A stretch of 64,000 nucleotides of DNA from an uncultured Candidatus Saccharibacteria bacterium (GCA_964432275.1 CAYSMH010000003.1:6718-70717), one strand, 5' to 3'; shown: positions 1,874 to 26,958, counted from the stretch's first letter. The notes: generated from the letters alone by a model not told the origin. Translations and numbers: made by a program.

Positions 1874-1882
1874 CAATCAAGC

Positions 1883-1912
1883 AAAAATCCCTATACAACA
1901 TAGGGATTTTTG
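1883..1912 (+). terminator. Rho-independent terminator (stem ATCCCTAT/ATAGGGAT followed by a T-run)
   Basis: Perfect 8-bp stem flanked by A/T runs, immediately after the tRNA. Confidence 0.6.
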
Positions 1913-2063
1913 CTATTGATGCCAATCATAATGGCGCGGACTGGTGGCCGAAGTGAGAACTGCAATTATCGCCCAGTATGAGCAAAACTTGCCGTGATAC
2001 TATCTTCGGCATTCGGAAGCCGAACTGCCGTCATATTCGCCAGAAGCCGTTTTGATCGTATCA

Positions 2064-2095
2064 CAAAAAAATAACCCCTGTAAAAAATACAGGGG
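2064..2095 (-). terminator. Rho-independent terminator for the minus-strand gene 2156..2770
   Basis: Stem CCCCTGTA/TACAGGGG, followed on the minus strand by TTATTTTTTT. Confidence 0.6.
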
Positions 2096-2155
2096 TGAAG
2101 ATTTGTAAAATCTTCAAAAACTTTTTCAATTCAATTTTATACCGAGAGCAAAGTA

Positions 2156-2770: not shown

Positions 2771-3011
2771 CCGCTTTTGGCGGACTCATCGGTGAAAAAT
2801 GTATTAAAGAACTGCTATTATTATAGCACTACTCTACTATATAGTCAAGTATGTTCCCCACCTTCTTGATTTGTAATAGTAATTATATGTAACTTTAGTT
2901 TCCACCCACGGACGAACTCGTGCTATGTGTATTGAGAGGTGTCCGTAAGTTGGTTCGTTATATCAGTCACTGGAAGTATCAAAAAGGAGCTGAAAGTGCT
3001 AAAATCTCACC

Positions 3012-3770: not shown

Positions 3771-3804
3771 CCTTGGATTTATCTGGTTAGAATTGTTATG
3801 CAAT

Positions 3805-3832
3805 AAAAAACCACACATGTTGTGGTTTTTTA
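3805..3832. terminator. Bidirectional rho-independent terminator (AAAAAACCACA-CATGT-TGTGGTTTTTT)
   Basis: Perfect stem flanked by A and T runs. Confidence 0.6.
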
Positions 3833-3908
3833 TTGCTAGAAAAATCTGGGGCTTTTTGATCAAAAGTGCTAGGATACGCATATTGACCATAAATTACTAT
3901 TACTATCA

Positions 3909-6146
3909 ATGGCTGCCACAGAAAAAACTACAAAAAATGTTCGGCGAAGTAATGTATTTTCATACATAAAAACGACACACGATTTGCTCCAGCACAGAGA
4001 GTTATTTCAAAAAGTTTTAGCCATACTGGGCGATTTGAAATCTATTCATCCAAAGCATACCTATACCTATCCCACAGAGGAACGAAACGATGATCTGGTC
4101 CAGCTTTTAATCGATCTCAAAATCGCCTCATACGATTGGGAAGAAATGGAGAAGCAAACGCACCGCGCGGTCGGAAATCGAATAATCGAGTTCCGTTTTG
4201 ACGGGAGTAAAGTCATTGAACTTGTTGATCGCGTTTCAGGTAAGCATAGCCGTATACGGAAAGAAACTCTTGAACTTATTTCAAAAGATATTGGGGAGAG
4301 GTTTACGCTCAATAAGATTGTCGAGATATTTACCGACATTGGGACACCAGAAAGCATGTTTACTCAAGACACCAAATGGCGGGCTGTTTTTTATATCCTC
4401 TCCTTCTACACCACATCAAAAGATTCGAAAGATATTTTGATGTTCTTGAAAATACTTGAACGGTTCGTTCATCCACTTTCGTTTGGCGGCGATGAAACAA
4501 AAGCCAAAGAAACTGAAGAAAAATATAATAAATGGCTCAAGTATGACCGATTCGGAATAAAGACCGGCAAAGCGTTCATTGGTCCAACCGAAGAAGAAAT
4601 TGACCTTGGTATGGATGAGTGGACCAATTCGGATGGCGAAAGCTTCGAAACAAGAGGATTGACAATATCACCAGATGATGTCGCTCGATTGTGGGTTTTT
4701 TGGACTCAGGTAGTCTTAATTGTGAGTGCGTATGAAGGCAATCAGGGACTTGACCGCGATGAGCTTGAGAAGCTGTATCTGGAACTCATAGCGAAAGCGG
4801 AGCAATTGATTGATCGGGGCGATCTCGGGGATTTAAAACAATCCTACAAACGACCGTTCAACAGTCTTGTAACTGCCGAGATTGAAGCACGGTCAAAAGG
4901 ATTCAATAGCCCTTATGAACTAGCTGGTATTTTTCTGATTATAGTGGGTCAAATGCAACCAGATGCTACTGAAATTCAAAAAGAACGAGAGGAACATGCC
5001 GATCTGATCAAGCGTGTCGCCTCTGCAACTCGCGCTATTAGTGGAGAAAAAATCAATATTGCAAAATTATCCTACGAGCAAGCTCTTTTCATACTGAAAC
5101 TATATGTGACTTATATCTCGAACATATTTGAAGCGGTCGCAAGTGGAAACGTAAAAATTACTGACAGTGCCCTTAACGCAAAATATATCCTATTTACCGA
5201 CTCTGTTGAGCAAATCCTCAACAGGAATGATTTTGCCAAACTCAAAAAACAACAGCCTGATTATCTACCAGAACATCTCTATATTGGGGCGGATGAAATG
5301 GAAACATGGTTTGAGTATGGTGGGCAACCAGCCATCATGAGCTTTATCGGAGCAATCGAAAGCGCCTGGGTGAGAAGCGGGCAGCAATCATTTCCTATAT
5401 CTCTCGCTCTCAATAATCAACTAACGGAAACAGACGAGATCATTTCTCGGCACAAGAAATATAAGTCAGAAAAATGGAAACAGATCACTAAAAACCTCGA
5501 CGGCATGAAGGATGAGATGTTTGGTGGCAATAACAAAAAGGAGGAACCGAAAACTGAGCCCGATACACCTAAAAAAGTTATTCACGAACACCTCCATCGT
5601 TTCGAGAATAGCATCCAAGAAAAGGATATTGCATTCAACCACACGTTTTTTGAAGGCGACACTGAGGGAACGGTAGTTAAGAACAAAAAGAAGATTGTGC
5701 TTCCAAAGTTTCCTGCAACCCCCTACGAACAGATTTCGATCCGCTTTCTAACTGATCAAGATGTCCTAATCACAACCCCCAAGAAACAGGTTAGCTCAAA
5801 CTATGAAGCTCTTGGGTTTTCAAATGACAAAGAGAAGAAGCCTAACACTGCATGGGTACTCTTATTACTTCTGGCAAAGAATGGTGGCGAAATCAAAACA
5901 TCAAAGCCTATTCCTGATACGTTACGCCAACAGAAGCGCCAAATCTCTGATCAATTTAAGCTCATATTTAGAAACTCGCAGGACCCGTTTGAGGATTTTT
6001 CTGACACAAATTCTTATCGCTTAAAAATCAAGCTCGAAGTTGTTGGCAAAGATGAAGCCCCTGATCCGCTCGGTACCCAAGAATACCTCGATGAAACCAT
6101 GACCGAAGGAGCAGAAAACTACGGTCGTGATTTCACGCAATTTTAA
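3909..6146 (+). CDS. Large orphan hypothetical protein (745 aa), island-1 cargo
   Basis: Long uninterrupted ORF, Lys/Glu-rich, no recognisable catalytic motifs, followed by a terminator. Confidence 0.6.
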   Translation: MAATEKTTKNVRRSNVFSYIKTTHDLLQHRELFQKVLAILGDLKSIHPKHTYTYPTEERNDDLVQLLIDLKIASYDWEEMEKQTHRAVGNRIIEFRFDGSKVIELVDRVSGKHSRIRKETLELISKDIGERFTLNKIVEIFTDIGTPESMFTQDTKWRAVFYILSFYTTSKDSKDILMFLKILERFVHPLSFGGDETKAKETEEKYNKWLKYDRFGIKTGKAFIGPTEEEIDLGMDEWTNSDGESFETRGLTISPDDVARLWVFWTQVVLIVSAYEGNQGLDRDELEKLYLELIAKAEQLIDRGDLGDLKQSYKRPFNSLVTAEIEARSKGFNSPYELAGIFLIIVGQMQPDATEIQKEREEHADLIKRVASATRAISGEKINIAKLSYEQALFILKLYVTYISNIFEAVASGNVKITDSALNAKYILFTDSVEQILNRNDFAKLKKQQPDYLPEHLYIGADEMETWFEYGGQPAIMSFIGAIESAWVRSGQQSFPISLALNNQLTETDEIISRHKKYKSEKWKQITKNLDGMKDEMFGGNNKKEEPKTEPDTPKKVIHEHLHRFENSIQEKDIAFNHTFFEGDTEGTVVKNKKKIVLPKFPATPYEQISIRFLTDQDVLITTPKKQVSSNYEALGFSNDKEKKPNTAWVLLLLLAKNGGEIKTSKPIPDTLRQQKRQISDQFKLIFRNSQDPFEDFSDTNSYRLKIKLEVVGKDEAPDPLGTQEYLDETMTEGAENYGRDFTQF

Positions 6147-6165
6147 CTAAATACAGAAACCCAAT

Positions 6166-6194
6166 AAAACACTGGCTATAAGGCCAGTGTTTTT
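6166..6194 (+). terminator. Rho-independent terminator (AAAACACTGGC/GCCAGTGTTTT)
   Basis: 11-bp perfect stem followed by a T-run. Confidence 0.6.
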
Positions 6195-6267
6195 CGTTCA
6201 TCGTGATTTTTCACCCTATACATATGAGAGCACAAAACTCTCATATTACTCACTAGCAATTATTACT

Positions 6268-6549
6268 ATGACAAAAAAGAAAATGTCAGCGAGCGAGCAA
6301 AATCTGCTCAATGACCCGTCTGTTGTTTTTACAACGTATGACCTTGGTGTATCAGCCGCACTCCTCTGTGCGGATTTTGAGCTTCTGGCGGTCCAAAAAA
6401 CCAATCCGCGCAAAGCCCTGTTCGTTTTTAAGAAAGAAAAAGGTATCGAAGATGCAGCAAATAGCTACTTCTCCGATCGTCTCAAAGTCAAAGCACGGTC
6501 GTATTTTGACCATCTCAAGGCACTCAAGAACAAACTCTACAGCGAATAG
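6268..6549 (+). CDS. Small hypothetical protein (start moved downstream of the terminator to MTKKKMSAS)
   Basis: The ORF-track start at 6187 lies upstream of/within the terminator region. An in-frame ATG at 6268 follows it. Confidence 0.4.
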   Translation: MTKKKMSASEQNLLNDPSVVFTTYDLGVSAALLCADFELLAVQKTNPRKALFVFKKEKGIEDAANSYFSDRLKVKARSYFDHLKALKNKLYSE

Positions 6550-6552
6550 TTC

Positions 6553-6732
6553 ATGGTTCTTTCAGACGAGAAAATCAAAGAGTTCCAAGAGTTATACAAA
6601 GAACACTTTGGAGTAGAGATCAGCAAAGCGGATGCCTATGAAAATGGCACAAAGCTTTTGCGACTGATCTCACTGATTTATCGTCCAATCGAACAAGATG
6701 AAGATGAGCTCAATGAGATTAACACCCGCTAA
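6553..6732 (+). CDS. Small hypothetical protein (59 aa, acidic C-terminus)
   Basis: Short ORF packed tightly between neighbouring genes. It is below the ORF-track length cutoff. Confidence 0.25.
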   Translation: MVLSDEKIKEFQELYKEHFGVEISKADAYENGTKLLRLISLIYRPIEQDEDELNEINTR

Positions 6733-6737
6733 ATCCA

Positions 6738-7082
6738 ATGACAAAAATCAACCGCCAAAAAATCTGCGGTTCGATGAGCTACACCATCAACGAGATGTCA
6801 GAGTATTTGGGTATCAACAAAAAAACTTGCCTACGCTGGATCGAGAACGGACTGCCGATCGTTCCTGGCAGCAAGAAACCAATTCTTATGCTCGGCTCAC
6901 AGATCAAGGAGTTTTTGCGAAAGAAAGACTCAAAGAAGAAAGTTGAGCTTAAGAGAAACGAGTTTTATTGCCTCAGATGCAAAGCCCCTCGGAGAGCAAA
7001 ACGTGGCTCAATCAAGCGATTGGCGCATCACAAAACGAGCATTTGTAGTGTCTGTAGCGGGAAAATGAGTCGGACAATCTAA
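6738..7082 (+). CDS. HTH DNA-binding protein with C-terminal CxxC...CxxC zinc ribbon
   Basis: The N-terminal segment MSEYLGINKKTCLRWIENGLP resembles excisionase/MerR-type HTH. The C-terminal CLRC...CSVCSG fits a zinc ribbon. Confidence 0.5.
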   Translation: MTKINRQKICGSMSYTINEMSEYLGINKKTCLRWIENGLPIVPGSKKPILMLGSQIKEFLRKKDSKKKVELKRNEFYCLRCKAPRRAKRGSIKRLAHHKTSICSVCSGKMSRTI

Positions 7083-7202
7083 CTCTCCCAAAAGGACTAA
7101 ATGATATTCTCGATACCAACTTAAATGTCCATTATGACCCTCGTTATGTTCCTACATATTAACGACAAAAATTATCCATTATAAACACTAAAAAGTTACC
7201 CT

Positions 7203-7436
7203 ATGACTACGCCACAAATCGAAGAAAAAATAACTCTCAACATCAGCGCTAGAAATCTACCATTTGTCATATCGGCACTTGAGTCAGAGATAGAGCATCT
7301 AAACAAAATCCAAAAGGCATGCGTCAAGAAAAAGCAGTTCCAAGCAGCAAACGATTTACTGCCCAACATCATGTTACTGGAGAATATGGTGAAATACCTG
7401 AAACCTTTCAAGCCCACCCCTTTACCATTCAAATAA
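7203..7436 (+). CDS. Small hypothetical protein
   Basis: 77-aa ORF immediately upstream of the integrase. Confidence 0.3.
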   Translation: MTTPQIEEKITLNISARNLPFVISALESEIEHLNKIQKACVKKKQFQAANDLLPNIMLLENMVKYLKPFKPTPLPFK

Positions 7437-7443
7437 CCCATCC

Positions 7444-8559
7444 ATGACAAACACTATGTATGAAAACGAAATAGCTAAAAGAGCTTTTTTCGAGCACTTA
7501 AAAGGGGCTAAAGGATTTTCGAGAAGTTCGATCCGTACCCACGCAGAGGCGGTCAATCAATGGGAAATCTTTACAAAAAATGATTACTTTTCTACCTACG
7601 ATAAATCCAAAGCTACCTCTTTTACTGACTGGCTTGCTAGTCGACCAGCTAAAACAAAATCTGGAACGATTTCACTGGTCACGCAGTACAACTACCTACG
7701 TCGTGTAAAAAAGTTCTTTACATGGCTATGCGACCAATCAAAGTATAGAAGTAAGATTGTAAAAAGCGATGTTGAGTACTTGCGCCTTTCAAAAGCCGAT
7801 GCTCAAATTGCACGTTCGGGGACGACAAAGAAAATGCCAACCTTCGAGGACGTTAAAAAGATAATCGAGAGTATTGGTGAAAAGTCTGAAATCGACATGC
7901 GTGACAGAGCGCTCATCTCCTTTGCGCTCATCACGGGTGGCCGCATTTCTGCCATAGTCTCGCTCAAGATGAAGAACTTTGACAAAGAGCTCAAGCAGAT
8001 CGATCAAAACCCAGGAGACGGCGTAAAGACCAAGAACTCAAAAAGAATACTCACCACCTTTTTCCCAATCGGTTGGGACGAACCTGAAAAATACTTCATG
8101 GAATGGTATGACTATCTCATTTCAAAGGACTTTCAATCAGATGACCCTATCTTCCCAGTGACCGCTGGTTCATTCGTAAGCGGAGAACATAGCTACAGCA
8201 AGGAAACCGTTGGACAGGATGCCTGGAGCGGCACAGGAGCCGCACGCAAGATATTTGAGAAGCGATGCAAAAATGCTGGACTACCATATTTCCACCCGCA
8301 CTCATTCCGTCATTTGGTTGTGAACATCCTTAGCAAGAAACGCCTCACCGAAGAAGAGAAACGTGCAATCAGCATGAACCTCGGACATGAAAATGTTGGT
8401 ACAACGTTTGGATCATATGGCTACGGAAGTATGAGCAATGAAAGCGCGGTGAAGATTGTTCAAAAATTGAAAGACGTACAGGATGGCACCAGTAACAGCC
8501 TTATGTTATCAGAGCAGGAAAAAGCTCTGTTGGAGAGACTATTGAAGCGTATTTCATAA
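7444..8559 (+). CDS. Tyrosine-type site-specific recombinase/integrase
   Basis: C-terminal catalytic motifs HPHSFRHLVVN (H-x-x-R) and LGHENVGTTFGSYGY (catalytic Tyr), plus an N-terminal SAM-like domain. Confidence 0.8.
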   Translation: MTNTMYENEIAKRAFFEHLKGAKGFSRSSIRTHAEAVNQWEIFTKNDYFSTYDKSKATSFTDWLASRPAKTKSGTISLVTQYNYLRRVKKFFTWLCDQSKYRSKIVKSDVEYLRLSKADAQIARSGTTKKMPTFEDVKKIIESIGEKSEIDMRDRALISFALITGGRISAIVSLKMKNFDKELKQIDQNPGDGVKTKNSKRILTTFFPIGWDEPEKYFMEWYDYLISKDFQSDDPIFPVTAGSFVSGEHSYSKETVGQDAWSGTGAARKIFEKRCKNAGLPYFHPHSFRHLVVNILSKKRLTEEEKRAISMNLGHENVGTTFGSYGYGSMSNESAVKIVQKLKDVQDGTSNSLMLSEQEKALLERLLKRIS

Positions 8560-8596
8560 ACTTGCAATGTAAAGAATAGTAAAGTATCATAAAGAT

Positions 8597-8770
8597 ATGG
8601 AAAAAGATTTTTACACAGCCCGAGATTTGGCCGATAAGCTTGGTCTAAACATTATGACGATCTATCGATGGATCGATGCGAAAAAGCTCAAGGCATACAA
8701 ACTTGGCAAGGAGTTTCGCATTGAGAAAAAGGACTTTGATGCTTTCTTGAAAAAAGCGAGTACCAAATAA
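8597..8770 (+). CDS. Excisionase-family HTH DNA-binding protein (57 aa)
   Basis: MEKDFYTARDLADKLGLNIMTIYRWIDAKKLKAYKLGKEFRIEKKDF matches the helix-turn-helix excisionase family. It sits between the two recombinase genes. Confidence 0.6.
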   Translation: MEKDFYTARDLADKLGLNIMTIYRWIDAKKLKAYKLGKEFRIEKKDFDAFLKKASTK

Positions 8771-8771
8771 T

Positions 8772-10424
8772 ATGAATAATGAGTATTCAAAAATAAAATA
8801 CTTCACTTACGCTCGCAAGTCGCAGGAGGGTGAGGAAAAACAAGTGCAATCAATCCCCGATCAATTGCGCGAGGCTGATGTTGTTGCAAAGCGCTATAAC
8901 ATAAAAGTTGTAGATGTTCTGACCGAAGAAGGTTCTGCAAAAGAGCCTGGCAAGCGCCCCATCTTTGAGGAGATGCTTGAGCGTATTAAAAATGGTGAGG
9001 CAAATGGAATTATTTGTTGGAACCTCAATCGTCTCTCTCGAAACCCAGTCGACAGCGGCAAGCTCCAATGGATGCTCCAACAAGGGCATATCCAATCAAT
9101 ACTCACACCGTCGCGGGAATACAAGCCCAATGACAATGCAATTATTTTTAGTGTGGAAAGTGGTGGCGCAAACCAATTTATTCTTGACCTCAAGGTTGGA
9201 GTAAATCGAGGACTCACAAGTAAGGTGAAGAAGGGGCAGGCGCCTGTCCGCGCACCGCTTGGGTACTTAAATACCAAGCACGAAGCTCGAGGTGAAAACT
9301 ACATTATCAAAGACCCTGAACGATTCGATCTTGTCAAAAAAACATGGACGCTGATGCTCACTGGTGAATACTCTATTCCCAAGCTTCTCAAAATTGTAAA
9401 CGATGATTGGGGTATGCGTACGCGCAAGTTCAAACATCATGGCGGTGGACCGATCAACAAAAGCACGATGTACAACATCTTTACCAATATTTTCTATACT
9501 GGTCTCTTTTTGTATCGAGGAGAAATAAGCAATGGTGTACACGAACCCATGATCACACTCGAGGAGTTTGATAAGGTACAGGTGTTACTTGGCCGATACG
9601 GGCGACCACGATCCAAGACCCATTCATTTGCCTATACGGGCACCATGGTATGTGCAGAATGCGGCAGCGGCATCACTGCGTGCGAAAAGACGAAGTTAGT
9701 GAAAGCTACTGGAAAACTCAAGAGTTACACCTTCTATTACTGTTCCCATCGCAAGAATGGGGTGAAAAACAAGTGTACCCAACGAGCGTACATCCCTTTG
9801 GAAACGATGGAAGAAATGATAAAGGCAGAGATCGATAAGTATACGATTTCTGAAAAGTTCCGTGATTGGGCTCTCCGTATTCTCCAAGAAGAGCACTCAG
9901 AGGAGGCCAAGGAACGTGAGGCGATCTACAGCTCCCAACTGGCCTCCCTTGAGGGTACCCAAAGGGAGCTAGATGCGCTTATAACGATGCGTATGCGTGA
10001 TTTCATAAATGATGAGCAATACGTATCACGAAAGAAAGGCCTCACGGATAAAATCGTCATTCTGACACAGAAAGTCACCCAAACGCAGAAACGAGCACAC
10101 AACTGGATGGAACACACTGAAGAGGCCTTTAACTTTGCTCATACAGCAAAGGCAAGGTTTGATAACCCTAAAACAACCCTAGATGAGAAAAAATCCATCT
10201 TTATGTCCCTCGGTTGGAACTACGAGGTGAAAGACGAAAAACTCTTTATAAATCAGTGTAAGTACCTAGAACCAATAGCAGAAAAACGAAAAGCCGTTGA
10301 AAGTGAAATAAGTCGGTTGGAACTGGGAAAAACCTTTGCCTTAAAAGGACAAAACACCCATTTAGGGGTGTCTTGTCCAGTTCTGCGCGAACGACGGGAC
10401 TTGAACCCGCAACCTCCCGCGTGA
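8772..10424 (+). CDS. Large serine recombinase (resolvase/invertase N-terminal domain, recombinase domain, zinc ribbon)
   Basis: Catalytic YARKS serine motif, SRN motif, a Cys cluster CAECGSG...YYCSHRKNG, and a coiled-coil C-terminal region. The last 39 nt overlap the convergent tRNA-Asp. Confidence 0.85.
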   Translation: MNNEYSKIKYFTYARKSQEGEEKQVQSIPDQLREADVVAKRYNIKVVDVLTEEGSAKEPGKRPIFEEMLERIKNGEANGIICWNLNRLSRNPVDSGKLQWMLQQGHIQSILTPSREYKPNDNAIIFSVESGGANQFILDLKVGVNRGLTSKVKKGQAPVRAPLGYLNTKHEARGENYIIKDPERFDLVKKTWTLMLTGEYSIPKLLKIVNDDWGMRTRKFKHHGGGPINKSTMYNIFTNIFYTGLFLYRGEISNGVHEPMITLEEFDKVQVLLGRYGRPRSKTHSFAYTGTMVCAECGSGITACEKTKLVKATGKLKSYTFYYCSHRKNGVKNKCTQRAYIPLETMEEMIKAEIDKYTISEKFRDWALRILQEEHSEEAKEREAIYSSQLASLEGTQRELDALITMRMRDFINDEQYVSRKKGLTDKIVILTQKVTQTQKRAHNWMEHTEEAFNFAHTAKARFDNPKTTLDEKKSIFMSLGWNYEVKDEKLFINQCKYLEPIAEKRKAVESEISRLELGKTFALKGQNTHLGVSCPVLRERRDLNPQPPA

Positions 10425-10459
10425 CAGGCGGGTGCTCTAACCAGTTGAGCTACGTCCGC
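10386..10459 (-). tRNA. tRNA-Asp (anticodon GTC)
   Basis: The reverse complement folds as GCGGACG acceptor, D-arm GCTC/GAGC, anticodon stem CCCGC/GCGGG with loop CTGTCAC, and T-arm GCGGG-TTCAAGT-CCCGT. Confidence 0.85.
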
Positions 10460-10487
10460 AAATTGTTAACAAAGCCTTTCGGCCGGG

Positions 10488-10561
10488 TGTCGACGGGTGG
10501 GCACGATCCACCGACCTTAGCGTTATGAATGCTACGCTCTAACCAGCTGAGCTACGCCGAC
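10488..10561 (-). tRNA. tRNA with CAT anticodon (elongator Met or Ile2/lysidine type), atypical T-loop
   Basis: The reverse complement has acceptor GTCGGCG/CGTCGAC, D-arm GCTC-AGCTGGTTA-GAGC and anticodon loop TTCATAA. The T-arm GGTGG-ATCGTGC-CCACC is non-canonical and there is an A31-C39 mismatch. Confidence 0.6.
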
Positions 10562-10634
10562 AATCTTGCAATGACAGGGCTCAAAAAATATAGCATATAT
10601 CCACGAAAATTCAACACGTGCTATACTGTCAGTA

Positions 10635-11492
10635 ATGAAAAAGTATGGTCTAATAATCGCGCTAACTATTATAGTACTTCCGGTATGTGCCTTTGCAGCG
10701 CCTCGTACACCTGCGCCAACACTGAGCGCAAAAGGTGTTGCGATATATGGATGGAATGAAGGTGATACTGAACCAACACCGTTGTATTTGAAAAATGAAC
10801 ATCGACTATATCCGATCGCAAGCCTCACAAAGCTTGTGACTGCAAAGGTTGCAGAAGAGTTGTACGATAAGGAAACAATATTTACGCTTTCTAAAAAGGC
10901 GATATCTACGTACGGTATTACCAATGGGATGTATGTCGGTGCACAGTTTACTCGAGATGATTTACTCAAAGCGCTTTTGGTAAATTCTAGCAACGATGCC
11001 GCAGCTGCGCTCATGGAACGAGTAGGGACAAAGACATTTTTGGAAAAAATGAATAATGTGTTGCATACCAACAAATATACGATGACATCATTTGTAAACC
11101 CGTCAGGTCTCGATCCGGTGCAAAAAAGTATAAAACCAAATCGGATGACACCATATCACCTAACCCGGTTACTCAACGATATCTACCGTTCAGACCCGCT
11201 TCTTGTGGATCTTATGTCCAAAGACGCTGTAGAGATAACCAACCTCAAGACCAATACAACTGCGCTACTGAAGCAAACCAATATTTTGTATCGAGATGAA
11301 GCATACAAAGATAAAATACTGATGAGTAAGACCGGACTTACCAACCTTGCAGGTCAAAACGTTGCCTTTATTTCTCCTGGTACTGATGAGTATGAGTACG
11401 TATCTGTAGTGATCCTCGGCTCCAAGAGTAGGGCAACAGACTCACGCAAAGTGATCGATTGGCTCACTAGTGACCAAAACTTCGGGGGATAG
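10635..11492 (+). CDS. Serine-type D-Ala-D-Ala carboxypeptidase (peptidase S11 / class A PBP-like), secreted
   Basis: Signal peptide, then SxxK (SLTK), SxN (SSN) and KTG motifs in canonical order. Confidence 0.75.
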   Translation: MKKYGLIIALTIIVLPVCAFAAPRTPAPTLSAKGVAIYGWNEGDTEPTPLYLKNEHRLYPIASLTKLVTAKVAEELYDKETIFTLSKKAISTYGITNGMYVGAQFTRDDLLKALLVNSSNDAAAALMERVGTKTFLEKMNNVLHTNKYTMTSFVNPSGLDPVQKSIKPNRMTPYHLTRLLNDIYRSDPLLVDLMSKDAVEITNLKTNTTALLKQTNILYRDEAYKDKILMSKTGLTNLAGQNVAFISPGTDEYEYVSVVILGSKSRATDSRKVIDWLTSDQNFGG

Positions 11493-11595: not shown

Positions 11596-13029
11596 ATGGA
11601 ACCTAACATTTCGCGTCCACGTGGACGCTCAACAACCCCTCGTCGTACTAGTTCATCAGATACTGCACGACCATTTACCAAACGAGCACCTCGCACAAGT
11701 GGTGGCTTTTCCCCTGGGAAAATCATAACCTCTATTGGTTCTGGTACTCGCTATGAAGGCAAGAAACCAAGCTATCCAAGTCGAGGGTCTGACTTTGGCG
11801 CAAGTCGTCCAAGTTTTGGAGGATCTTCTCGTGGAGGCTACGGTGCTAGTCGGGGCGGATATGGTGGAGGAAGTAGAGGGGGCTTTGGAGGTAGTCGCGG
11901 CGGAGGTCGTCGTGGGCCAAAGGCTGATTTCATCGATGAGAACCGATTCATCAACAAAGCAGCAAAGATCGAAGACGAAGTAGTATACACACCGACACAC
12001 ACATTTTCTGATTTCAATATTCACGAAACACTCGGTAAAAACCTTGCCAAAAAGAATTTCGTACACCCATCTCCTATCCAAGATCAAGCTATTCCGGTAG
12101 CACTTGAAGGTAAAGACATCATCGGTATTGCAGCAACAGGTACTGGTAAGACTGCTGCATTCCTGATCCCTATCATCAACAAGTTCGTAGATGATCGTAT
12201 GCACCAAGCAATGGTGCTTGCGCCGACTCGCGAGCTCGCACAACAAATCGAAGAAGAGTTCCGACTCTTTACGGTTGGTATGCGACTCTACTCAGTATCT
12301 GCAGTTGGGGGTCTTCCGATCACCAAGCAGATCCGTGAGATCGATCAGGGTGTACACATCGTGATTGGTACACCGGGTCGCGTCAAAGATTTGATCGAAC
12401 GAGGCAAGCTCAAACCTGCTGACTTCAACACGATCGTGCTCGATGAAGCAGATCGCATGCTCGACATGGGATTTGTGGATGATATGCGGCAGATTCTCGG
12501 TGCAATGCCGGAGTCCAAGCAATCAATGTTTTTCTCTGCCACATTCTCACCAGAGATCAAGCGTCTTTGTTCAGATTTTCTTCGTGATCCAGTCACTATC
12601 TCGCTCAAAACTCGTGATACCTCTGCAAGTGTTGACCAAGATATTGTGCGTGTACCACGCGGCACTGAAAAAATCGAAGTACTTCATGACCTTCTCAACA
12701 AAGAAGATTTCAAAAAGGTGTTGATCTTCCGCGAAACCAAGCGCAACACTGACGAACTCGCACGAGATCTCAAGAAGCGTGGCTTTGCAGCAATGCCGCT
12801 CCACGGTGACATGAGAAGTCGTGAACGTATGCGTACCGTCGAATCATTCTCAAAAGGAATGACCAAAATTGTGGTAGCAACTGACGTTGCAGCTCGTGGT
12901 ATCGATATCCCTGATATCACACATGTGATCAACTACGATGTGCCATCAACATATGACACCTACGTACACCGTATCGGCCGAACAGGTCGCGGTAACAAAA
13001 AGGGAGTAGCACTTACGTTCGTTCGATAA
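11596..13029 (+). CDS. DEAD-box ATP-dependent RNA helicase with N-terminal RGG/Gly-Arg-rich low-complexity region
   Basis: Q-motif, AxTGTGKT (Walker A), DEAD (VLDEADRMLDMGF), SAT and HRIGRTGR motifs. Confidence 0.9.
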   Translation: MEPNISRPRGRSTTPRRTSSSDTARPFTKRAPRTSGGFSPGKIITSIGSGTRYEGKKPSYPSRGSDFGASRPSFGGSSRGGYGASRGGYGGGSRGGFGGSRGGGRRGPKADFIDENRFINKAAKIEDEVVYTPTHTFSDFNIHETLGKNLAKKNFVHPSPIQDQAIPVALEGKDIIGIAATGTGKTAAFLIPIINKFVDDRMHQAMVLAPTRELAQQIEEEFRLFTVGMRLYSVSAVGGLPITKQIREIDQGVHIVIGTPGRVKDLIERGKLKPADFNTIVLDEADRMLDMGFVDDMRQILGAMPESKQSMFFSATFSPEIKRLCSDFLRDPVTISLKTRDTSASVDQDIVRVPRGTEKIEVLHDLLNKEDFKKVLIFRETKRNTDELARDLKKRGFAAMPLHGDMRSRERMRTVESFSKGMTKIVVATDVAARGIDIPDITHVINYDVPSTYDTYVHRIGRTGRGNKKGVALTFVR

Positions 13030-13216: not shown

Positions 13217-13256
13217 AATAAAAAGAGATTATCTTTCGATAATCTCTGTAATCAAT

Positions 13257-14336
13257 TTACTGCGCAACTTTTCGGAACATGTTGCTTCTCATCCAATCAC
13301 GATCAATGAGTGTCCGCGGGCCTGTTTTTACAATTCCAACAGGGATACCTGTCCAGTCTTCAAGACGTTCGATGAAATCCTCTATCTTTGAACTCAATGT
13401 TTCTTGTTCATAGACAGAGTGGTCAATGTGATCAAGGAATGTCAGCGCGATCTCGCTCGGAGCATTTATCTCGCATGCTCTCTTGATGCCTTGCCAGCTA
13501 AATGTTGCAACTCGACGAACAGTCTTGGTAACTGATGTTTTTTCAGTAATGTCATGTGGTGCACCAGAAAATTTCCTGACGTACTCCCAGTCCACCTCTT
13601 CTGAATCATCATCAAATGGCCCACTGTTACCACCAACACGGATGGGAAATGTACGAGCAACACCGATCGGTCTCACATCGTACGCATGTCCAGGCAATCC
13701 TGCTTCTGCGAGTAATGATGTCACGGTGGCATCTCGGCTTGTCGTATAAGGGAATGTCCCATGAAAGAGGCTTAGTCCAAATCCTTGCGTTCCTTCCAGT
13801 ACAATGACTCCACCTTCATGTAATTCTCTCAGCATAAGGGGAATCGTGTCGGAAATGTAGTCTTTGAGCTCTGGAACATCTTTTGCAAACATACATCGAG
13901 GATCTCGCATGGCCCGGTCTGCAGCAGCTATACCAATACCAAGACCTGCCTTTGCAGAGGTACTTGCAATAGCTGAAGCAAGCCCAGTAGCACGCTCACG
14001 ATCGATCTGGTCTTGAGTAATCACCATCGCATGTGCATCGATGTAGAGCCGGCGTTTGATAGATAACACTTTTTCAATCATTTCAATTTCTGGAAGCAGT
14101 ACATGAAGACTGATCTGTGCACCTTTTCCGATGACGAGCTTTACATGTGGATGTATGCAACCACACGGTATTTGTCGCATGATATACGGTCCTATCGTGT
14201 GGCCCGCATTTGCAGCACCAGTGCGAACAATCATAGATGCTATGGTGCATATATATGCAGCTATTTCTCCTTTGCTTTCTGATCCGAATTGAAGGCCTGT
14301 TACAGGGATAATAGTTCCCAATCTTTCTTTTATCAT
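13257..14336 (-). CDS. Adenylosuccinate synthetase (PurA)-like protein, short form with divergent catalytic loop
   Basis: NAGHT, LEGTQG, TKTVRRV (in place of TTGRRRR) and C-terminal KTGP motifs are collinear with PurA. GDEGKGK is replaced by GSESKGE. Start chosen at MIKERLG; the ORF track extends it to 14393. Confidence 0.7.
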   Translation of the reverse strand: MIKERLGTIIPVTGLQFGSESKGEIAAYICTIASMIVRTGAANAGHTIGPYIMRQIPCGCIHPHVKLVIGKGAQISLHVLLPEIEMIEKVLSIKRRLYIDAHAMVITQDQIDRERATGLASAIASTSAKAGLGIGIAAADRAMRDPRCMFAKDVPELKDYISDTIPLMLRELHEGGVIVLEGTQGFGLSLFHGTFPYTTSRDATVTSLLAEAGLPGHAYDVRPIGVARTFPIRVGGNSGPFDDDSEEVDWEYVRKFSGAPHDITEKTSVTKTVRRVATFSWQGIKRACEINAPSEIALTFLDHIDHSVYEQETLSSKIEDFIERLEDWTGIPVGIVKTGPRTLIDRDWMRSNMFRKVAQ

Positions 14337-17389: not shown

Positions 17390-18556
17390 ATGAAAGTGCG
17401 ACCCAATGTTTCGCTACCACCTAAACCTCGAGGGCTGCTTATTTATGATGCCGATCGAGAACTCGATACGACACATCCATTGTGGAACGAAATCATGCTC
17501 TACTCAGAACGTCTCGAAGAAGTGCATGTGTTGGTATGTATAAAAAAGTTTCCACAAAAGGCAACCCGTGTAGTACATCTCAATACCAATACGTTCGTAT
17601 ATTATTTACCGAGTAGATGGTTGCTCTTGCGTCTCGGTACTATCCTACCACTCATTCGTTACAACATGGTTTGGAACAAGATGTTTCGTCCGCAATTTAT
17701 TCTCAACCATTCAACTCATAGTGGTGCAATACTCGGGTTTTTCCTTTCTTTGCGATATCGAATTCCGTATGTTGTGTCAACGACTGGAGGCTTTCTCGAA
17801 GCTCCTATTCTTTCGCGTGAATTTCTCTTGCACTATGCGCTCATGCGCTGCGCACAGCAAATACTTGTTCCAGGAGAGAAGACTGCACACGACCTATCAG
17901 CACATACTGGAGTACCGAGTACTCGTATTAGTGTAGTACCACCTGCCGTAGATCTTTCATTTTTGGGACAAAAGGTTGATGCAGTAAGTTTTGCAAAACA
18001 GTATCCTTTTCACAACTTCTTTTTAATTACTCAAACATCAATCGGACATCGGCGAGATATCATGTTTCTTATGCGAGTGTTTCGGCGAGTATTGTCCAAG
18101 TACCCCAAAACAGCGCTTATTATTGTTGTTCCCCGATCACAGGTTGCAGTAGTATCCCACATTGTTGGTGGTCGTCATGCCGCAAGTGTATATGTGTACC
18201 CACAAGGCGATGAGATTGCGCAGATGATTGCTGGTGCACATGTTTATCTTGCTACTTCAGAAACACAAGAAACAGTACTTCCTATAGTACGAGCACTGTC
18301 ACTACATATTCCTGTTGTAGCTACGTCAGTAGGTATTGCCAAAGACCTCTTTACGGGGACTCGGTATGCCCAGTGTACGGTAGCGGTAGGAGATGAAGAT
18401 GCGTACACCAAAGCAGTAGTTGACCTGATTGAACACCAGCAACTACGCGATGAGTATCGTCTCAACACGACAACACTTATTGCAACATTTACTCCTCAGA
18501 CGCCATCGGGGTATATTGCCGCAGTCCTTGCTCATGTGGTACAAGAAAAGGCATAG
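17390..18556 (+). CDS. Glycosyltransferase family 1 (GT4-like)
   Basis: C-terminal GT1 fold signature region ([13 protein letters not shown]-x7-E-like). Confidence 0.5.
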
Positions 18557-18557
18557 T

Positions 18558-19439
18558 ATGGACAAAGAAGCCCTCACTGCACGTATTGCCGAGATAGAAG
18601 CTGCTATGATGGACGGCGCGTTTTGGAATGACGTACCACAGGCACAAGCACAGATCAAAGAACTCCAAGAACTCAAAGACAAGCTCGAAGGCGGTAGTAT
18701 CTATGATAAAGGTGCGGCAATTCTTACGATATTTTCTGGAGCAGGTGGAGATGATGCAGAAGACTTTTCAGCAATGCTTTTGCGTATGTATACCAAATAC
18801 ATAGAACGCAAAGGTTGGAGTATGTCAGTAATTCATAGCAATACCAATGATCATGGTGGGTATCGCAATATTAGTATTGAAATCGAAGGTAAGGGAGTAT
18901 TCGGTAATCTCAAAAATGAAAGCGGGGTTCATCGACTTGTACGCATCTCACCATTTAATGCAAATAGTAAACGGCAAACATCTTTTTCACTTGTTGAAGT
19001 TATTCCCAAGCTTGCCAAGTCTGATACCGCAGTGGTGATTGCAGATAGTGATCTTGATATCTCATTTGCACGAGCAGGAGGACCTGGTGGGCAAAACGTT
19101 AACAAGCGTGAGACTGCAGTGCGTATGGTGCATATACCCACAGGCCTTTCAGTACATGTCACCAGTGAGCGCAGTCAGGAACAAAACAGAGACAAGGCTC
19201 TCGAGCTTCTCAAGGGTAAACTGTATAAACGTCAAGAAGAAGAGCGTATTGCGAAAGAAAAAGGATTGTATATTTCCAAGACTACTGATATCGAATGGGG
19301 TAATCAGATACGTTCCTATGTGCTCCATCCATACAAAATGGTGAAAGATCATCGCACCTCTGTAGAAACAGGAAATGTGGATAAAGTGCTCGAGGACGGA
19401 GACCTTGATGAGTTTATAGAAGCAGAACGAGGTTTGTAG
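18558..19439 (+). CDS. prfB: Peptide chain release factor 2, N-terminally shortened, no programmed frameshift
   Basis: SPF tripeptide (RF2-specific) and GGQ motif. Start placed at MDKEALT immediately after the upstream stop. Confidence 0.8.
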
Positions 19440-21139: not shown

Positions 21140-21213
21140 TGCGGAATCGTCTAATGGTAGGACGCATCCCTCTGGAGGATGTTATCTTGGTTCGAGTCCA
21201 GGTTCCGCAGCCA
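21140..21213 (+). tRNA. tRNA-Gln (anticodon CTG), U1-A72, 3-bp D-stem, CCA encoded
   Basis: Acceptor TGCGGAA/TTCCGCA, anticodon stem CATCC/GGATG with loop CTCTGGA, T-arm CTTGG-TTCGAGT-CCAGG, discriminator G plus CCA. The U1-A72 pair and short D-stem are typical of tRNA-Gln. Confidence 0.8.
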
Positions 21214-21360
21214 TTGACAGATAGCACGAGACGTGTTGAAATAACGATTCTCGAGCTAGCTCAATATACTATACTGAAATTGCTTACCCGCTGAGTGCGA
21301 TAACCAGAACAAAAGACATCTAATTTTAGGTGTCTTTTGTATTTACGATATCTCATCATT

Positions 21361-21759
21361 TTAGGATAGTTCATTTAAAAACTTTTCCGCAGTATCTTTG
21401 GTAGGAGCAATATCGTATATCTCTTCTGGTGTTAAAATCAACAAACCTTTTACTACTCTATCTGGCAACTGTTCTTTTATCCATGAGGTTGCATTATCAA
21501 AATATTCTCCATCTGTTATATATTCAACATTTCCTTTTATCTGATACCCCATCATTTTTTTCCAGCATACAAGAGAAACCGAGGGGTTAAGAAGAATATT
21601 TGCTAGTGTTTTATCAAGAAAATAGTTTATAAGCCAAATTTTCCCTTCCACAATCCTTATTGAAGATACAGGAACAACGTTTATGTTTGTGCCATATGTT
21701 GCAAGTGCTTTTGATTCGGCAGATAAAATAAATTTTTCAATATCTTCATCAATTTTCAT
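21361..21759 (-). CDS. Pyridoxamine 5'-phosphate oxidase-like FMN-binding split-barrel protein
   Basis: Size and sequence pattern of the PNPOx-like / general stress protein 26 family. Confidence 0.5.
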   Translation of the reverse strand: MKIDEDIEKFILSAESKALATYGTNINVVPVSSIRIVEGKIWLINYFLDKTLANILLNPSVSLVCWKKMMGYQIKGNVEYITDGEYFDNATSWIKEQLPDRVVKGLLILTPEEIYDIAPTKDTAEKFLNELS

Positions 21760-21908
21760 ATGTTTTTATTCTTATTTATATTTATAAATAGTACTCCTAA
21801 ATAAGGATAAGTCGATATTTCACACCTAAAATTAGAACCTTAATTCTAGTTACCTTTTAAGAATAATTGAAGAGTAGGCTATTACGATATTTAAGTATTT
21901 AAAATACC

Positions 21909-21937
21909 TTGACAATACCCCCCTGGGGGTATATACT
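21909..21937 (+). promoter_or_regulatory. Sigma70-like promoter (TTGACA-17-TATACT) with CsoR-type operator palindrome ATACCCCCCTGGGGGTAT in the spacer
   Basis: Perfect -35 hexamer, 17-nt spacer consisting exactly of an 18-bp GC-rich perfect inverted repeat, -10 TATACT, and the csoR ATG 7 nt downstream. Confidence 0.7.
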
Positions 21938-21943
21938 CGGTAC

Positions 21944-22207
21944 ATGTCTACGAATAAAGAAAAAATGATACGCCGGTTAAAAATAATTGAAGGTCAAGTA
22001 AGGGGTCTTCAAGACATGATTGAAAAAGGTACATATTGTATCGACGTCATCACGCAGGCATCCGCGATAAAGCAGGGAATTTCCAATGTTGAGGATACTC
22101 TTCTTGAGCATCATTTGGGCCATTGCTTAATTAACCAAATTAAGGATGGAAAAGCTGATAAAGCTACACAAGAAATCATCCAAGTTTATCGTTTAAAGCG
22201 CAAGTAA
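21944..22207 (+). CDS. csoR: CsoR/RcnR-family metal-sensing transcriptional repressor
   Basis: 87 aa. Conserved Cys (YCIDV) and His/Cys (EHHLGHC) metal ligands in the W-X-Y-Z arrangement, upstream of copA. Confidence 0.75.
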   Translation: MSTNKEKMIRRLKIIEGQVRGLQDMIEKGTYCIDVITQASAIKQGISNVEDTLLEHHLGHCLINQIKDGKADKATQEIIQVYRLKRK

Positions 22208-22229
22208 TTTAATAGAAATAATTATTTAT

Positions 22230-22793
22230 ATGAAAAAAATATCATTATATTTCGCAATTAGCATAGCAATTGTATCCGGGGTTCTTGGTCTTGTTATTGG
22301 GTATGCCCTTACTCCTGAATATAGAACTTCAATGTATGAAAAAAACACAATGGATTTAGGACGTGCTGACCGTACGTTTGATTTGCGTTATATTAACGCA
22401 ATGATTGCGCATCATCGGGGCGCAATGCTACTTGCTGAGCAACTCCAAAAAAATACTGATAGACCTGAACTACAAACGCTCGCAGCTGATATATTGAAAG
22501 GAGAGCCTGTGCTTATTGAAGAGCTTTATACATGGAAAAAAGAGTGGTACGGAGATAGTAGAAAAGTGCGTGATCCTATTGTTGCAAACCTTGGTCCAAA
22601 AGATGAAAAATTTGACCTTAGATTTTTAAACGCAATTATTGCACACCATGAAGCTGGTATTGAGATGACTCAAGAAACACGTATTAAATCAAGTAGGGCT
22701 GAAATTCTTAATAATGCAGATGGAGTAGAAGCATTTCTCAAAGGAGGTATAGAAACACTTAAAGGTCTTAGGTCAACATGGTATTCAATTTAA
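22230..22793 (+). CDS. DUF305 domain protein (two DUF305 repeats), membrane-anchored
   Basis: Two copies of the DxRFLxAMIxHHxGAIxM motif. The family is often linked to copper resistance loci. Confidence 0.6.
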
Positions 22794-22807
22794 CTCATTA
22801 CAAAGAT

Positions 22808-25066
22808 ATGAAAAAAGATGTCTATACAATAAAAGGGATGCACTGTGCAAGTTGTGCTTCCATAATTACGAAAACTGTTTCAAAGGTTCCAGGTGTGCGT
22901 GATATATCGGTGAATTTTGCGAGTGAAAAAGCGAATCTTTCGTTTGATCCGTCTGCTACCTCTATTGAAGTAATGAATACAGAGCTTGAGAAGTTAGGAT
23001 ATATGATTATGTCTACTGGTGAAGAAGAATCTGGAGTACATGATCATGCTAAAACTTCTGACAGCGAACTTGTGCTATTACAACAGAAAACACATTTTGT
23101 ACTACCAATCACTGGCGTAATATTTATACTTATGTTATGGGATATTCTCGCACGGACATTTGTTCGTGTTCCAAATCTTCCTATACCTATGGATCTTTTC
23201 AATATAATAAACATGGTACTTGCAACAATAGTATTGTTTTGGGTTGGAAAACCATTTTTAAAAGGTGTTACAAGATTCCTTCGATATAAGGTTGCTAATA
23301 TGGATACCCTTATTGGTATTGGTACGCTCACTGCATATTTATACAGTGTTGTTATAACGCTATTACCATCTATTCGCGACCTATTGCGCGTACCAGAATT
23401 CACCTATTTTGATGTGACTATTGTCGTGATTGGATTTATTACACTTGGAAAATACTTGGAGGCTCGATCAAAAAAGAAAACAGGGGATGCGATTGAAGCT
23501 CTACTCACGCTTCAGGCAAAAACCGCCCTTATTATTCGTCAGGGAGAAGAAGTTGAAATTCCAATCACTGAAGTGGTGCATGGGGATCTTATTGTTGTAA
23601 AGCCCGCCGGTAGAATCCCAGTTGATGGTGTTGTTGCTGAGGGGTCTTCATATGTGGATGAATCTATGATTACTGGCGAGCCAATTCCTGTGGAAAAAGG
23701 GGAGGGAGATACTGTGGTTGCAGGTACGATGAATACTACAGGGTCATTTACATTCAAGGCAACAAAAGTAGGAGCAGAAACTATGCTTGCGAATATTATC
23801 AAAATGGTAGAAGAGGCGCAGGGAAGTCGTGCGCCAATTCAGGCGCTCGCCGATAAAATCTCAAGCGTGTTTGTTCCTATTGTTCTAGTCATTGCCTTTC
23901 TTTCACTAGTTGCATGGCTAACTATTGGCTCAACCTATCTTGGCTTCTCACAAGCACTTTCACTTGGAATACTTTCGTTTGTAAGTGTGCTCGTAATTGC
24001 GTGTCCATGTGCGCTTGGACTTGCTACGCCGACAGCAATTATCGTTGGGGTCGGTAAAGGGGCAAGGAATGGCATTCTTATCAAAGACGCTGCTACGTTG
24101 CAGAAACTTCACGAAGTTACCACGGTTGTTGTTGATAAGACAGGGACTATTACAAAAGGAAAACCAGAGCTAGTGTCTATAAAAAATCTTTCTGATCGGT
24201 CAGATGAAGAGATTATTGCACTACTTGCTGCGCTTGAGAAAAAATCTGAACATCCTATTGCACATGCAATTGTTTCGTATGCGAAAGAAACAGATATACA
24301 AATTCCTCCAGTTGGATCATTTCAGATTGTAAAAGGTGAAGGTATTCGTGGTTCAATACTCGGAATAGAATATTTTGCTGGTAATATCCGGCTTATGGAA
24401 AACCTCAAGCACGCTATAGACATATCAATGATTGAGGCAGAGACAAAAACTGGAAAAACACCAGTGCTACTTGCTACGAAAGAAAAAATACTTGCAATCG
24501 TTATGGTTGCAGATGCGGTAAAGCCTGAAGCAAAAAATGCTATACAGGAGCTTCATAAGAAAGGAATTAAGGTTTACATGTTAACTGGAGATAATATAAA
24601 TACTGCGCAGTTTATTGCTTCTTCTGTGGGAATAGATGAGGTCATTGCCGAAGTAACACCTGAAGATAAACTCAATACAGTCAAAAAATTACAATCATCG
24701 GGAGAAGTAGTCGCAATGGCTGGAGATGGAGTCAATGACGCTCCAGCTCTCGCTCAAGCAGATGTCGGTATTGCTATGGCAACCGGGACAGATGTTGCTA
24801 TAGAGAGCGCGGGAATCACACTCTTGCACGGTGATATTACAAAACTTGTTAAGGCAATCAATCTTTCAAAGATTACGATGCGTGGGATTAAGCAAAATTT
24901 ATTCTGGGCATTTATATATAATATTGTAGGGATACCACTTGCGGCAGGTGTATTTTATCCACTATTTGGATGGCTGCTCAATCCGATATTTGCAGGGCTT
25001 GCAATGGCATTCTCGAGCGTGTCGGTGGTAGGAAACTCATTGCGGTTAAAAGCTAAAAAACTATAA
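22808..25066 (+). CDS. copA: Copper-translocating P1B-type ATPase CopA with N-terminal HMA domain
   Basis: GMHCASCAS (CxxC HMA), TGEP, CPC ([11 protein letters not shown]), DKTGT and [10 protein letters not shown] motifs. Start placed at [10 protein letters not shown] to avoid overlap with the upstream gene. Confidence 0.9.
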
Positions 25067-25068
25067 GT

Positions 25069-26109: not shown

Positions 26110-26111
26110 CT

Positions 26112-26501: not shown

Positions 26502-26540
26502 ATGATTTATAAATTTAATAAGTTAAAATATACTATATCT

Positions 26541-26957: not shown

Positions 26958-26958
26958 C

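Follow-up and report, generated by a model that had tools for sequence, protein, structure and literature searches.

A chromosomal Ser13 (PurZ-type) member of the PurA superfamily in Candidatus Saccharibacteria, and the case for a guanine nucleotide as its substrate

PurZ-type enzymes are held to be a phage invention, with roots in archaeal adenylosuccinate synthetase (AdSS, PurA), that serves genomes containing 2-aminoadenine (Z). PurZ0 of the actinophages Archimedes, Wayne and Ghobes is a GTP-dependent 2-aminodeoxyadenylosuccinate synthase (PDB 7VF6; Tong et al., 2023, as cited in PMC12884076). The ATP/dATP-dependent PurZ has solved structures from phages phiVC8 (6FM1/6FKO) and S-2L (7ODX). 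In phiVC8 PurZ, residues F12, S14 and T262 are reported to accommodate the 2-NH2 group of deoxyguanosine monophosphate (dGMP), and the S14D change reportedly abolishes selectivity (bioRxiv 10.1101/2025.10.22.683976). In PurA, Arg303 (E. coli numbering, as for all PurA residues below) contacts O2' of inosine monophosphate (IMP), and in PurZ a loop insertion pulls Val241 towards C2', a loop to which a role in 2'-deoxy selection is ascribed (Czernecki et al., PMC8342488). A 2026 NAR paper (PMC12884076) puts the conservation of Asp13 among true PurAs at 99%, and places four archaeal Ser/Gly sequences basal to PurZ0 and PurZ with weak support. The gene studied here occupies 13257..14336, minus strand, of a 64,000-nucleotide stretch from an uncultured Candidatus Saccharibacteria bacterium (GCA_964432275.1 CAYSMH010000003.1:6718-70717), hereafter the window. 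As judged from sequence, it certainly encodes an intact protein that falls in the Ser13 (PurZ-type) branch of this superfamily.

The open reading frame (ORF) is intact from an ATG at 14336 to its end at 13257, and encodes 359 residues of the short, archaeal-type architecture, as assigned from the ORF itself, Pfam (PF00709, adenylosuccinate synthetase, E=3e-43), NCBIfam and the structural model. An alternative GTG start at 14393 would add 19 residues, and the ATG is preferred because homologues begin at that position. The protein was registered by HMMER and MAFFT alignments to Pyrococcus horikoshii PurA, E. coli PurA, PurZ and PurZ0, and all of the motifs that follow were placed by alignment on the minus strand. 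Phe17 and the P-loop GSESKGE (residues 18-24, G18-S19-E20-S21-K22-G23-E24) lie at 14265..14288; F17 is the equivalent of E. coli W11 and phiVC8 F12, S19 of Asp13 and phiVC8 S14, S21 of Gly15, and E24 of Lys18. NAGHT (residues 43-47, 14196..14210) holds His46, the catalytic acid His41. The 5'-phosphate loop ASTSAKAGLGIG (residues 124-135, 13932..13967) has S125 in place of Thr128 and a four-residue insertion (SAKA, in G-S-T-S-AKAG-LGIG) that is specific to the clade from the candidate phyla radiation (CPR), and LEGTQG (residues 180-185, 13782..13799) holds the base-binding Gln224 as Gln184.

Further along, RVGGNSG (residues 233-239, 13620..13640) includes Val234, the equivalent of Val273, followed by a two-residue insertion. 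TSVTKTVRR (residues 267-275, 13512..13538) begins with T267 at the position of Gly298 (phiVC8 T262). Within it and just beyond, SVTKTVRRV (residues 268-276) replaces the TTGRRRR of PurA, with K271, T272 and V273 standing in place of G302, R303 and R304, and R274 keeping R305. The NTP-base pocket motif TFLDH (residues 299-303, 13428..13442) contains F300, the equivalent of PurZ F295, and D302, the guanine-specifying Asp333; its last residue, H303, is Tyr in most CPR homologues and in PurZ. The C-terminal nucleotide-pocket motif KTGP (residues 337-340, 13317..13328) corresponds to G416-P417. A sequence-only reading of this DNA had described a short PurA-family protein with NAGHT, LEGTQG, TKTVRRV for TTGRRRR, KTGP and GSESKGE, all of which are present, and its register for D13S, G15S and K18E agrees with both alignments. 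A mis-registered N-terminal loop was considered as well and rejected, with HMMER, MAFFT and Foldseek all putting Ser19 at Asp13.

The other catalytic and ligand residues of PurA that were compared are all kept, namely Lys16 (K22), His41 (H46), Thr129 (T126), Arg143 (R144), Gln224 (Q184), Thr239 (T199), Thr301 (T270), Arg305 (R274) and Asp333 (D302). The PurA-defining Asp13 (of GDEGKG) and Arg303, a residue in contact with L-Asp as well as with O2' of IMP, are absent, replaced by Ser19 and Thr272. The protein is not a canonical PurA by this defining residue or by curated score, reaching 246.2 bits against the archaeal PurA model NF003295 (cut-off 368 bits) and 172.7 bits against TIGR00184 (cut-off 395.55 bits). 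Its score against the PurZ model NF038379, 205.7 bits, is also below the cut-off of 300 bits.

Serine at the position of Asp13 is a trait of the whole clade. Those of the 120 closest database proteins (46–100% identity) with a named source are Patescibacteria (Paceibacterota, Saccharimonadales, Tagabacteria and others), and G-S-E-(G/A/S/R)-K-G is found in every one with a complete N-terminus, which amounts to more than 100 Patescibacteria homologues. The sequence-only reading had guessed at an organism with a reduced genome, which was right. From 1.84 billion proteins clustered at 50% identity, the best 150 cluster representatives were taken; the 146 that were aligned have Ser at this position in 140 cases (∼96%), Gly in three and Asp in one. 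Of the 120 nearest relatives of P. horikoshii PurA, which come from Thermococcales, Archaeoglobales and Methanococcales, every one, on the other hand, has GDEGKG. The only changes that are family-wide are D13S and the loss of R303/R304. G15S is confined to the query, the homologue nearest to it and a handful of further proteins, with Gly in 92% of CPR homologues and Ala in PurZ0, and at Lys18 the short PurAs show no conservation, with Ser in P. horikoshii and Ala in most CPR proteins. By alignment, G15S and K18E are minor lineage-specific changes, and the weight which the sequence-only reading had put on these two is unwarranted.

The likeness to PurZ and PurZ0 extends well beyond the P-loop. 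A signature alignment was made of 41 CPR proteins, 15 Asp13 PurAs (E. coli and 14 of archaeal type, including P. horikoshii), five PurZ (JSF15/phiVC8-type, SH-Ab 15497, ZP6, K21lambda1 and S-2L) and three PurZ0 (Wayne, Ghobes and Goodman), and a signature position was defined as one where all eight PurZ and PurZ0 proteins agree on a single residue and Asp13 PurA has a different one with a conservation of 85% or more. At six such positions (D13S, C103A, D114E, K267R, T271I and G298T) the PurZ state is present in 40–41 of the 41 CPR proteins, with Ser at Asp13 in 41/41 and in 8/8 PurZ and PurZ0, against Asp in 15/15 Asp13 PurAs. At the seventh, Val72, CPR proteins have Ala or Ser and never the PurA state. 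Ser at Thr128 occurs in all CPR, PurZ and PurZ0 proteins and is not exclusive to them, being found in six of the 15 Asp13 PurAs too. Trp11 is Phe or Tyr in CPR as in PurZ and PurZ0, and the triad reported to accommodate the 2-NH2 group in phiVC8 PurZ is matched by F17, S19 and T267 in the query and by F/Y in 37/41, S in 41/41 and T in 41/41 of the CPR proteins.

The features associated with the sugar are shared in the same way. Arg303 and Arg304 are lost in CPR, PurZ and PurZ0 (the former position being K, N, T or L in CPR), and the two-residue insertion after Val273 (RVG-GNSG-P) is common to PurZ0 (AGNSG) and PurZ (GGTSG) and absent from PurA (RVG-AGP). Asp333 is kept in 41/41 CPR proteins (D302 here), as in PurA and in the GTP-using PurZ0, and is Asn or Gln in PurZ.

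Sequence matches among solved structures were best for P. horikoshii PurA (E=4e-51), followed by phiVC8 PurZ/‘DgsS’ (E=9e-36), whose GSTGKG and TVTKKVRRV align opposite GSESKGE and SVTKTVRRV of the query, and PurZ0 7VF6 (E=5e-30). An AlphaFold2 model of the query, built on a 35-sequence CPR alignment, had a predicted local distance difference test (pLDDT) score of 92.5 and a predicted template modelling (pTM) score of 0.91. Foldseek gave template modelling (TM) scores, normalised to query and target, of 0.85 and 0.90 for P. horikoshii PurA (5K7X), 0.83 and 0.82 for PurZ0 (7VF6), and 0.80 and 0.83 for phiVC8 PurZ (6FKO). This fold comparison confirms the family and does not separate PurA from PurZ0 or PurZ, and hence does not separate their substrates.

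Trees were bootstrapped neighbour-joining trees only. All Ser13 proteins group together in 98 of 100 replicates and the CPR clade in 92 of 100, both outside the Asp13 PurAs, so that the query does not cluster within canonical PurA. PurZ and PurZ0 (each 100/100) are monophyletic without CPR. The Ser13 radiation comprises the CPR clade, phage PurZ, phage PurZ0, homologues in DPANN archaea and two bacterial cassettes, and its phage group numbers 212 phage records and 273 IMG/VR contigs. The best IMG/VR match to the CPR family is only 43% identical, and the CPR clade itself is therefore not seen in viruses. What appears to be new is a clade of PurZ-type enzymes that is large, cellular and equipped with a GTP pocket, and that is at present annotated as ordinary adenylosuccinate synthetase. 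A literature search for CPR, Patescibacteria or Saccharibacteria together with PurZ, purA/purB or adenylosuccinate gave nothing relevant.

Taken together, the pocket residues favour a guanine nucleotide, probably the deoxy form, as substrate with GTP as phosphoryl donor, and we tentatively put first a cellular, catalytically competent, GTP-dependent, PurZ0-like synthase using GMP or dGMP, a reading to which we give nearly an even chance. By homology with PurZ0 and PurZ, such an enzyme would bind a guanine mononucleotide, most likely dGMP, with the 2-amino group fitted by F17, S19 and T267, and with the 2'-OH contact removed by the absence of Arg303 together with the insertion that follows Val234. 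O6 would be phosphorylated with GTP, whose guanine would be read by Asp302, whilst His46, Lys22 and Mg2+ would have the roles that they play in PurA. The phosphate would then give way to the alpha-amino group of L-aspartate, yielding N6-succino-2-amino-(2'-deoxy)adenylate, which adenylosuccinate lyase could convert to (d)ZMP. The wider proposal, that Patescibacteria (and probably DPANN) make Z deoxynucleotides by a vertically inherited chromosomal PurZ0-type enzyme, would amount to the first cellular Z pathway, with consequences for the origin of PurZ, and we regard it as unlikely. Among the options raised by the sequence-only reading, a PurZ-like substrate is thus the best supported, an altered mechanism with IMP still as substrate stands as a rival, and a non-catalytic paralogue is not supported by the conserved residues or the fold.

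Several points weigh against a guanine-nucleotide substrate. The activity of the CPR and DPANN members is a prediction from sequence, and the shared residues could be inherited markers of the clade rather than determinants of specificity. The C-terminal half of the CPR proteins has many PurA-like residues, and the clade keeps PurA-like states at many sites where PurZ and PurZ0 vary. Neighbour-joining does not fix the sister of the CPR clade, with bootstrap values of 30 for PurZ plus PurZ0, 18 for PurZ and 23–39 for a DPANN/phage group. Z nucleotides are not known from any cellular organism, and no physiological use for them in CPR is obvious.

The neighbourhood, too, lacks a Z pathway, with no DatZ, MazZ, DpoZ or purB in the 64-kb window or in ∼340 kb of CPR and DPANN flanks. 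Pfam searches of the ∼50 ORFs of the window, where purB, DatZ and MazZ had been named for checking, found no purB, HD/YfbR-like (DatZ), MazG (MazZ), Dut-like or NDT-like gene, and tblastn searches that used PurB and GuaC from E. coli and DatZ and MazZ from S-2L as queries found none in the window or those flanks, a test of low power, as 80 viral loci also gave none with these queries, and one that does not speak for the genome beyond. Finally, a solitary gene in a housekeeping context, kept widely in very small genomes, is what would be expected of an essential salvage AdSS.

It is this last explanation, an ordinary Patescibacteria AdSS (IMP + Asp + GTP → adenylosuccinate) serving AMP salvage through an Asp-independent activation of O6, that competes most seriously, and we consider it a real if lesser possibility. 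Phage PurZ0 and PurZ would then have evolved later from such a cellular enzyme, and the shared residues would reflect ancestry and not specificity. At the loci examined, the CPR Ser13 gene is always solitary among housekeeping genes and is the only PurA-family gene present, and its synteny with TypA, DEAD helicase and DacA genes is conserved with the closest relative. It is widespread in CPR classes, with a similar form in DPANN beside ribosomal-protein operons. The product resembles PurA in its GTP pocket and C-terminal half, P. horikoshii PurA is its best overall match in both sequence and structure, and PurZ shows that O6 can be phosphorylated without Asp13. Purine-auxotrophic parasites typically depend on AdSS plus adenylosuccinate lyase, which also counts for this explanation. 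It has to contend, however, with an Asp13 that is almost fixed in true PurAs (∼99%, and 120/120 of the archaeal short PurAs) and never regained in the CPR clade, with a 2-NH2 triad and a loss of Arg303 that are strictly conserved, and with a score under the PurA equivalog cut-off. Nor is a supply of IMP obvious, since 93% of Patescibacteria genomes are without de novo nucleotide synthesis (bioRxiv 10.64898/2026.06.21.733656).

A promiscuous 6-oxopurine nucleotide:aspartate ligase, accepting IMP, dIMP, GMP and dGMP and rebalancing scavenged purine (deoxy)nucleotides, would suit an enzyme that is a hybrid of a PurZ-type base and sugar pocket with a PurA/PurZ0-type GTP pocket, and Patescibacteria do live on host-derived nucleotides (bioRxiv 10.64898/2026.06.21.733656). 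The characterised relatives, however, are reported to be selective (bioRxiv 10.1101/2025.10.22.683976), and no known downstream enzyme turns 2-aminoadenine into adenine nucleotides, so we think this improbable. A non-catalytic or decaying paralogue is very improbable indeed. The query evolves fast, as does its closest relative, with 11 and 10 deviations respectively against a median of 3 (at 109 positions at least 90% conserved among 116 CPR homologues), and the query carries the two extra P-loop substitutions G15S and K18E. None of these deviations is at a known catalytic residue, however, and PurZ0 tolerates Ala at Gly15. A decaying paralogue was rejected on residue conservation and model quality: the ORF is full-length, the catalytic and ligand residues are kept, 57 columns are invariant across 35 CPR sequences, and the pLDDT of the model is high.

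The context of the gene is cellular. The window holds five tRNAs and genes for gatA, a D-Ala-D-Ala carboxypeptidase (dacA), a DEAD-box helicase, typA/bipA, prfB and ftsEX, together with RNase J, RNase R, trmD, rpoB, rpoC, dnaG and rpoD. The closest homologue, 72% identical, lies on a 353-kb contig of a Candidatus Saccharibacteria metagenome-assembled genome (MAG; GCA_964474435.1) in the same order, gatA ... dacA – DEAD helicase – PurA-like – typA – methyltransferase – GT4 glycosyltransferase – release factor – ftsEX. This relative has only a NUDIX gene at the site of an integrase/recombinase island that lies at ∼2.1–10.4 kb of the window, yet has the PurA-like gene, and because the gene is found without the island it is not prophage cargo. 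The CPR clade is apparently chromosomal and vertically inherited across Patescibacteria. A phage PurZ on a prophage or mobile element, which might be suggested by the integrase and recombinase genes at 7.4–10.4 kb of the window and by most non-CPR relatives being viral, was therefore rejected as the least probable explanation of all, given the synteny and housekeeping flanks, the presence of two tRNA genes, dacA and the DEAD-helicase gene between island and gene, and an identity of 43% to the best viral match against 46–72% within CPR.

Other members of the Ser13 radiation stand in varied surroundings. In DPANN, a Ser13 PurA-like gene (GSEGKG, ‘GGPQAGH’) is found in a cellular context at six loci (L029, L031, L033, L036, L049 and L058). 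At L029, a 218-kb contig of a Nanoarchaeota MAG, it occupies 9989-11164 between ribosomal-protein operons, and ∼3.3 kb upstream is a gene for a protein whose N-terminus we take to be AMP-phosphorylase-like. This DPANN subclade (100/100) also takes in a protein from a virus-like contig (P0125). Among phage-like contigs with Ser13 genes, one has an adjoining YfbR-like HD gene, and another has a kinase fusion beside genes for dCMP deaminase and PolA.

Two conserved cassettes, found on the chromosomes of numerous free-living bacteria, also carry Ser13 enzymes. The first (loci L050-L100) occurs on ∼30 chromosomes, among Acidobacteriota, Dehalococcoidia, Bacteroidota, Proteobacteria, Actinobacteria, Planctomycetes, Verrucomicrobia and Thermoplasmata. 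Its order is an IrrE/M78 peptidase (PADLOC capP-like) with a Macro (DarG-like) domain, then a P-loop kinase/Ser13 PurA-like fusion of ∼540 residues, then DUF7002, with or without a second P-loop kinase. Examples are Pseudomonas sp. TH43 (L100, 8031-12273), Marinobacter confluentis (L093, 9425-12963), where the cassette adjoins a Kiwa KwaA gene, and Dyadobacter psychrotolerans (L089, 7791-11661). Its make-up resembles that of a defence or toxin-antitoxin-type system, as yet uncharacterised, with a PurZ-like enzyme at its centre; the PurA-like part matches no PADLOC model, and a literature search for DUF7002 returned nothing.

The second cassette (loci L039-L092, ∼25 bacterial genomes) has an RNase_H_2-type exonuclease plus P-loop kinase (∼690 residues), a stand-alone Ser13 PurA-like protein (∼345 residues) and a dCTP-deaminase/dUTPase-like PF22769 protein, with or without a deoxynucleoside kinase, as in Lacibacter sp. 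MH-610 (L077, 7941-12786) and Aetokthonos hydrillicola (L066, 7924-12152). A metagenomic protein (P0177) fuses PurA-like and PF22769-type domains. The pairing of PurZ-like and Dut-like proteins recalls PurZ0 and DutZ of the PurZ0 phages, although this cassette is in bacterial chromosomes. The taxa that bear cassettes presumably also encode a canonical PurA, making the Ser13 gene an extra one. Because it is an extra gene that sits beside genes for kinases and dUTPase/dCTP-deaminase-like proteins, and given its occurrence in phages, the Ser13 gene in phages and bacterial cassettes is probably not a housekeeping AdSS. For the query, no sign of a defence role was found: PADLOC gave no hit, and none of the CPR or DPANN loci has cassette partners nearby.

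Some further features of the window may be noted. Directly after the stop of the PurA-like gene, a consensus scan only gave a terminator-like hairpin with a 10-bp stem and T-run (13224..13247, minus strand). The integrated mobile element (1803-10562) is an insertion of ∼8.5 kb that runs from tRNA-Met (1803-1874) to tRNA-Asp/tRNA-Met (10385-10562) and encodes a tyrosine integrase (7444-8559), a large serine recombinase (8772-10424), an HTH_17 protein, a DUF5659 protein and a 745-residue ORF without Pfam match (3909-6146). The DEAD-box helicase (11596-13029) has an N-terminal, Arg/Gly/Ser-rich, low-complexity (RGG-like) extension of ∼120 residues, and that of the relative is of similar length (468 residues). 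Within 17390-19439, the release-factor ORF (PCRF and RF-1 domains; TTG start at 18429) overlaps the upstream glycosyltransferase ORF by ∼130 nt. Adjoining tRNA-Gln is a copper/metal-resistance island (21140-34820) with two DUF305 proteins, an HMA-DsbD_2 protein, a cupredoxin, a Cu-type P1B ATPase with HMA domain (22778-25066), a serine recombinase (26959-28281, minus strand) and a multicopper oxidase (31496-32731); its GC content falls to 0.36 at 26–28 kb, and the island is absent after ftsX in the relative. At 46625-48910 is a 761-residue protein with a peptidoglycan-binding domain and Kelch/BNR beta-propeller repeats, an unusual surface-type protein for CPR.

The pocket signature of phage enzymes is fixed here in a large cellular clade of organisms that are mostly unable to make IMP de novo. 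Should the enzyme be a GMP- or dGMP-using synthase, ultra-small symbionts may make 2-aminoadenine nucleotides, which would be a new cellular nucleotide chemistry that could be tested for in their DNA. On the wider proposal that we regard as unlikely, a partial A-to-Z substitution could follow, for example to tell self DNA from scavenged host nucleic acids, and phage PurZ0 and PurZ would derive from these cells, not from Asp13 archaeal PurA. Should it instead be an AdSS, Ser13 and the 2-NH2 triad alone would fail to define PurZ function, which would overturn the Ser13 diagnostic in metagenomic surveys for Z-phages and relocate the origin of PurZ. Either outcome touches annotation, as the genes now called adenylosuccinate synthetase are purine-pathway markers in metabolic reconstructions of CPR.

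Compared with the named enzymes, the query is closest overall in sequence and fold to P. horikoshii PurA (5K7X/2D7U), and shares with it the length class, the Asp333 GTP pocket and the KTGP C-terminus. It differs, however, in that Asp13, Trp11, Gly298, Arg303 and Arg304 are all changed, and PurA has no insertion after Val273. PurZ shares the F-G-S start of the P-loop, the TxVTKxxRR tip, the F295 equivalent and a D/E-rich segment after the GNSG loop (FDDDSEEVDW against HYPDQEELTW), but has Asn or Gln at Asp333 (ATP specificity) and Thr at Glu14, where the query keeps Asp and Glu, and is found alongside DatZ and MazZ in the Z-cluster of a phage, whereas the query is cellular. PurZ0 differs in being only ∼30% identical, in forming a separate clade at 100% support, and in having DutZ/DmtZ partners in phages, whilst the CPR gene is chromosomal without such neighbours in the window and its product has the four-residue phosphate-loop insertion, a longer stretch leading up to the TSVT tip and a C-terminal half like that of PurA. 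With PurZ0, nevertheless, the query has in common Ser at Asp13, F/Y at Trp11, Thr at Gly298, Ser at Thr128, the retained Asp333, the replacement of Arg303/Arg304 by a non-Arg residue and Val, the GNSG insertion after Val273, and the short architecture.

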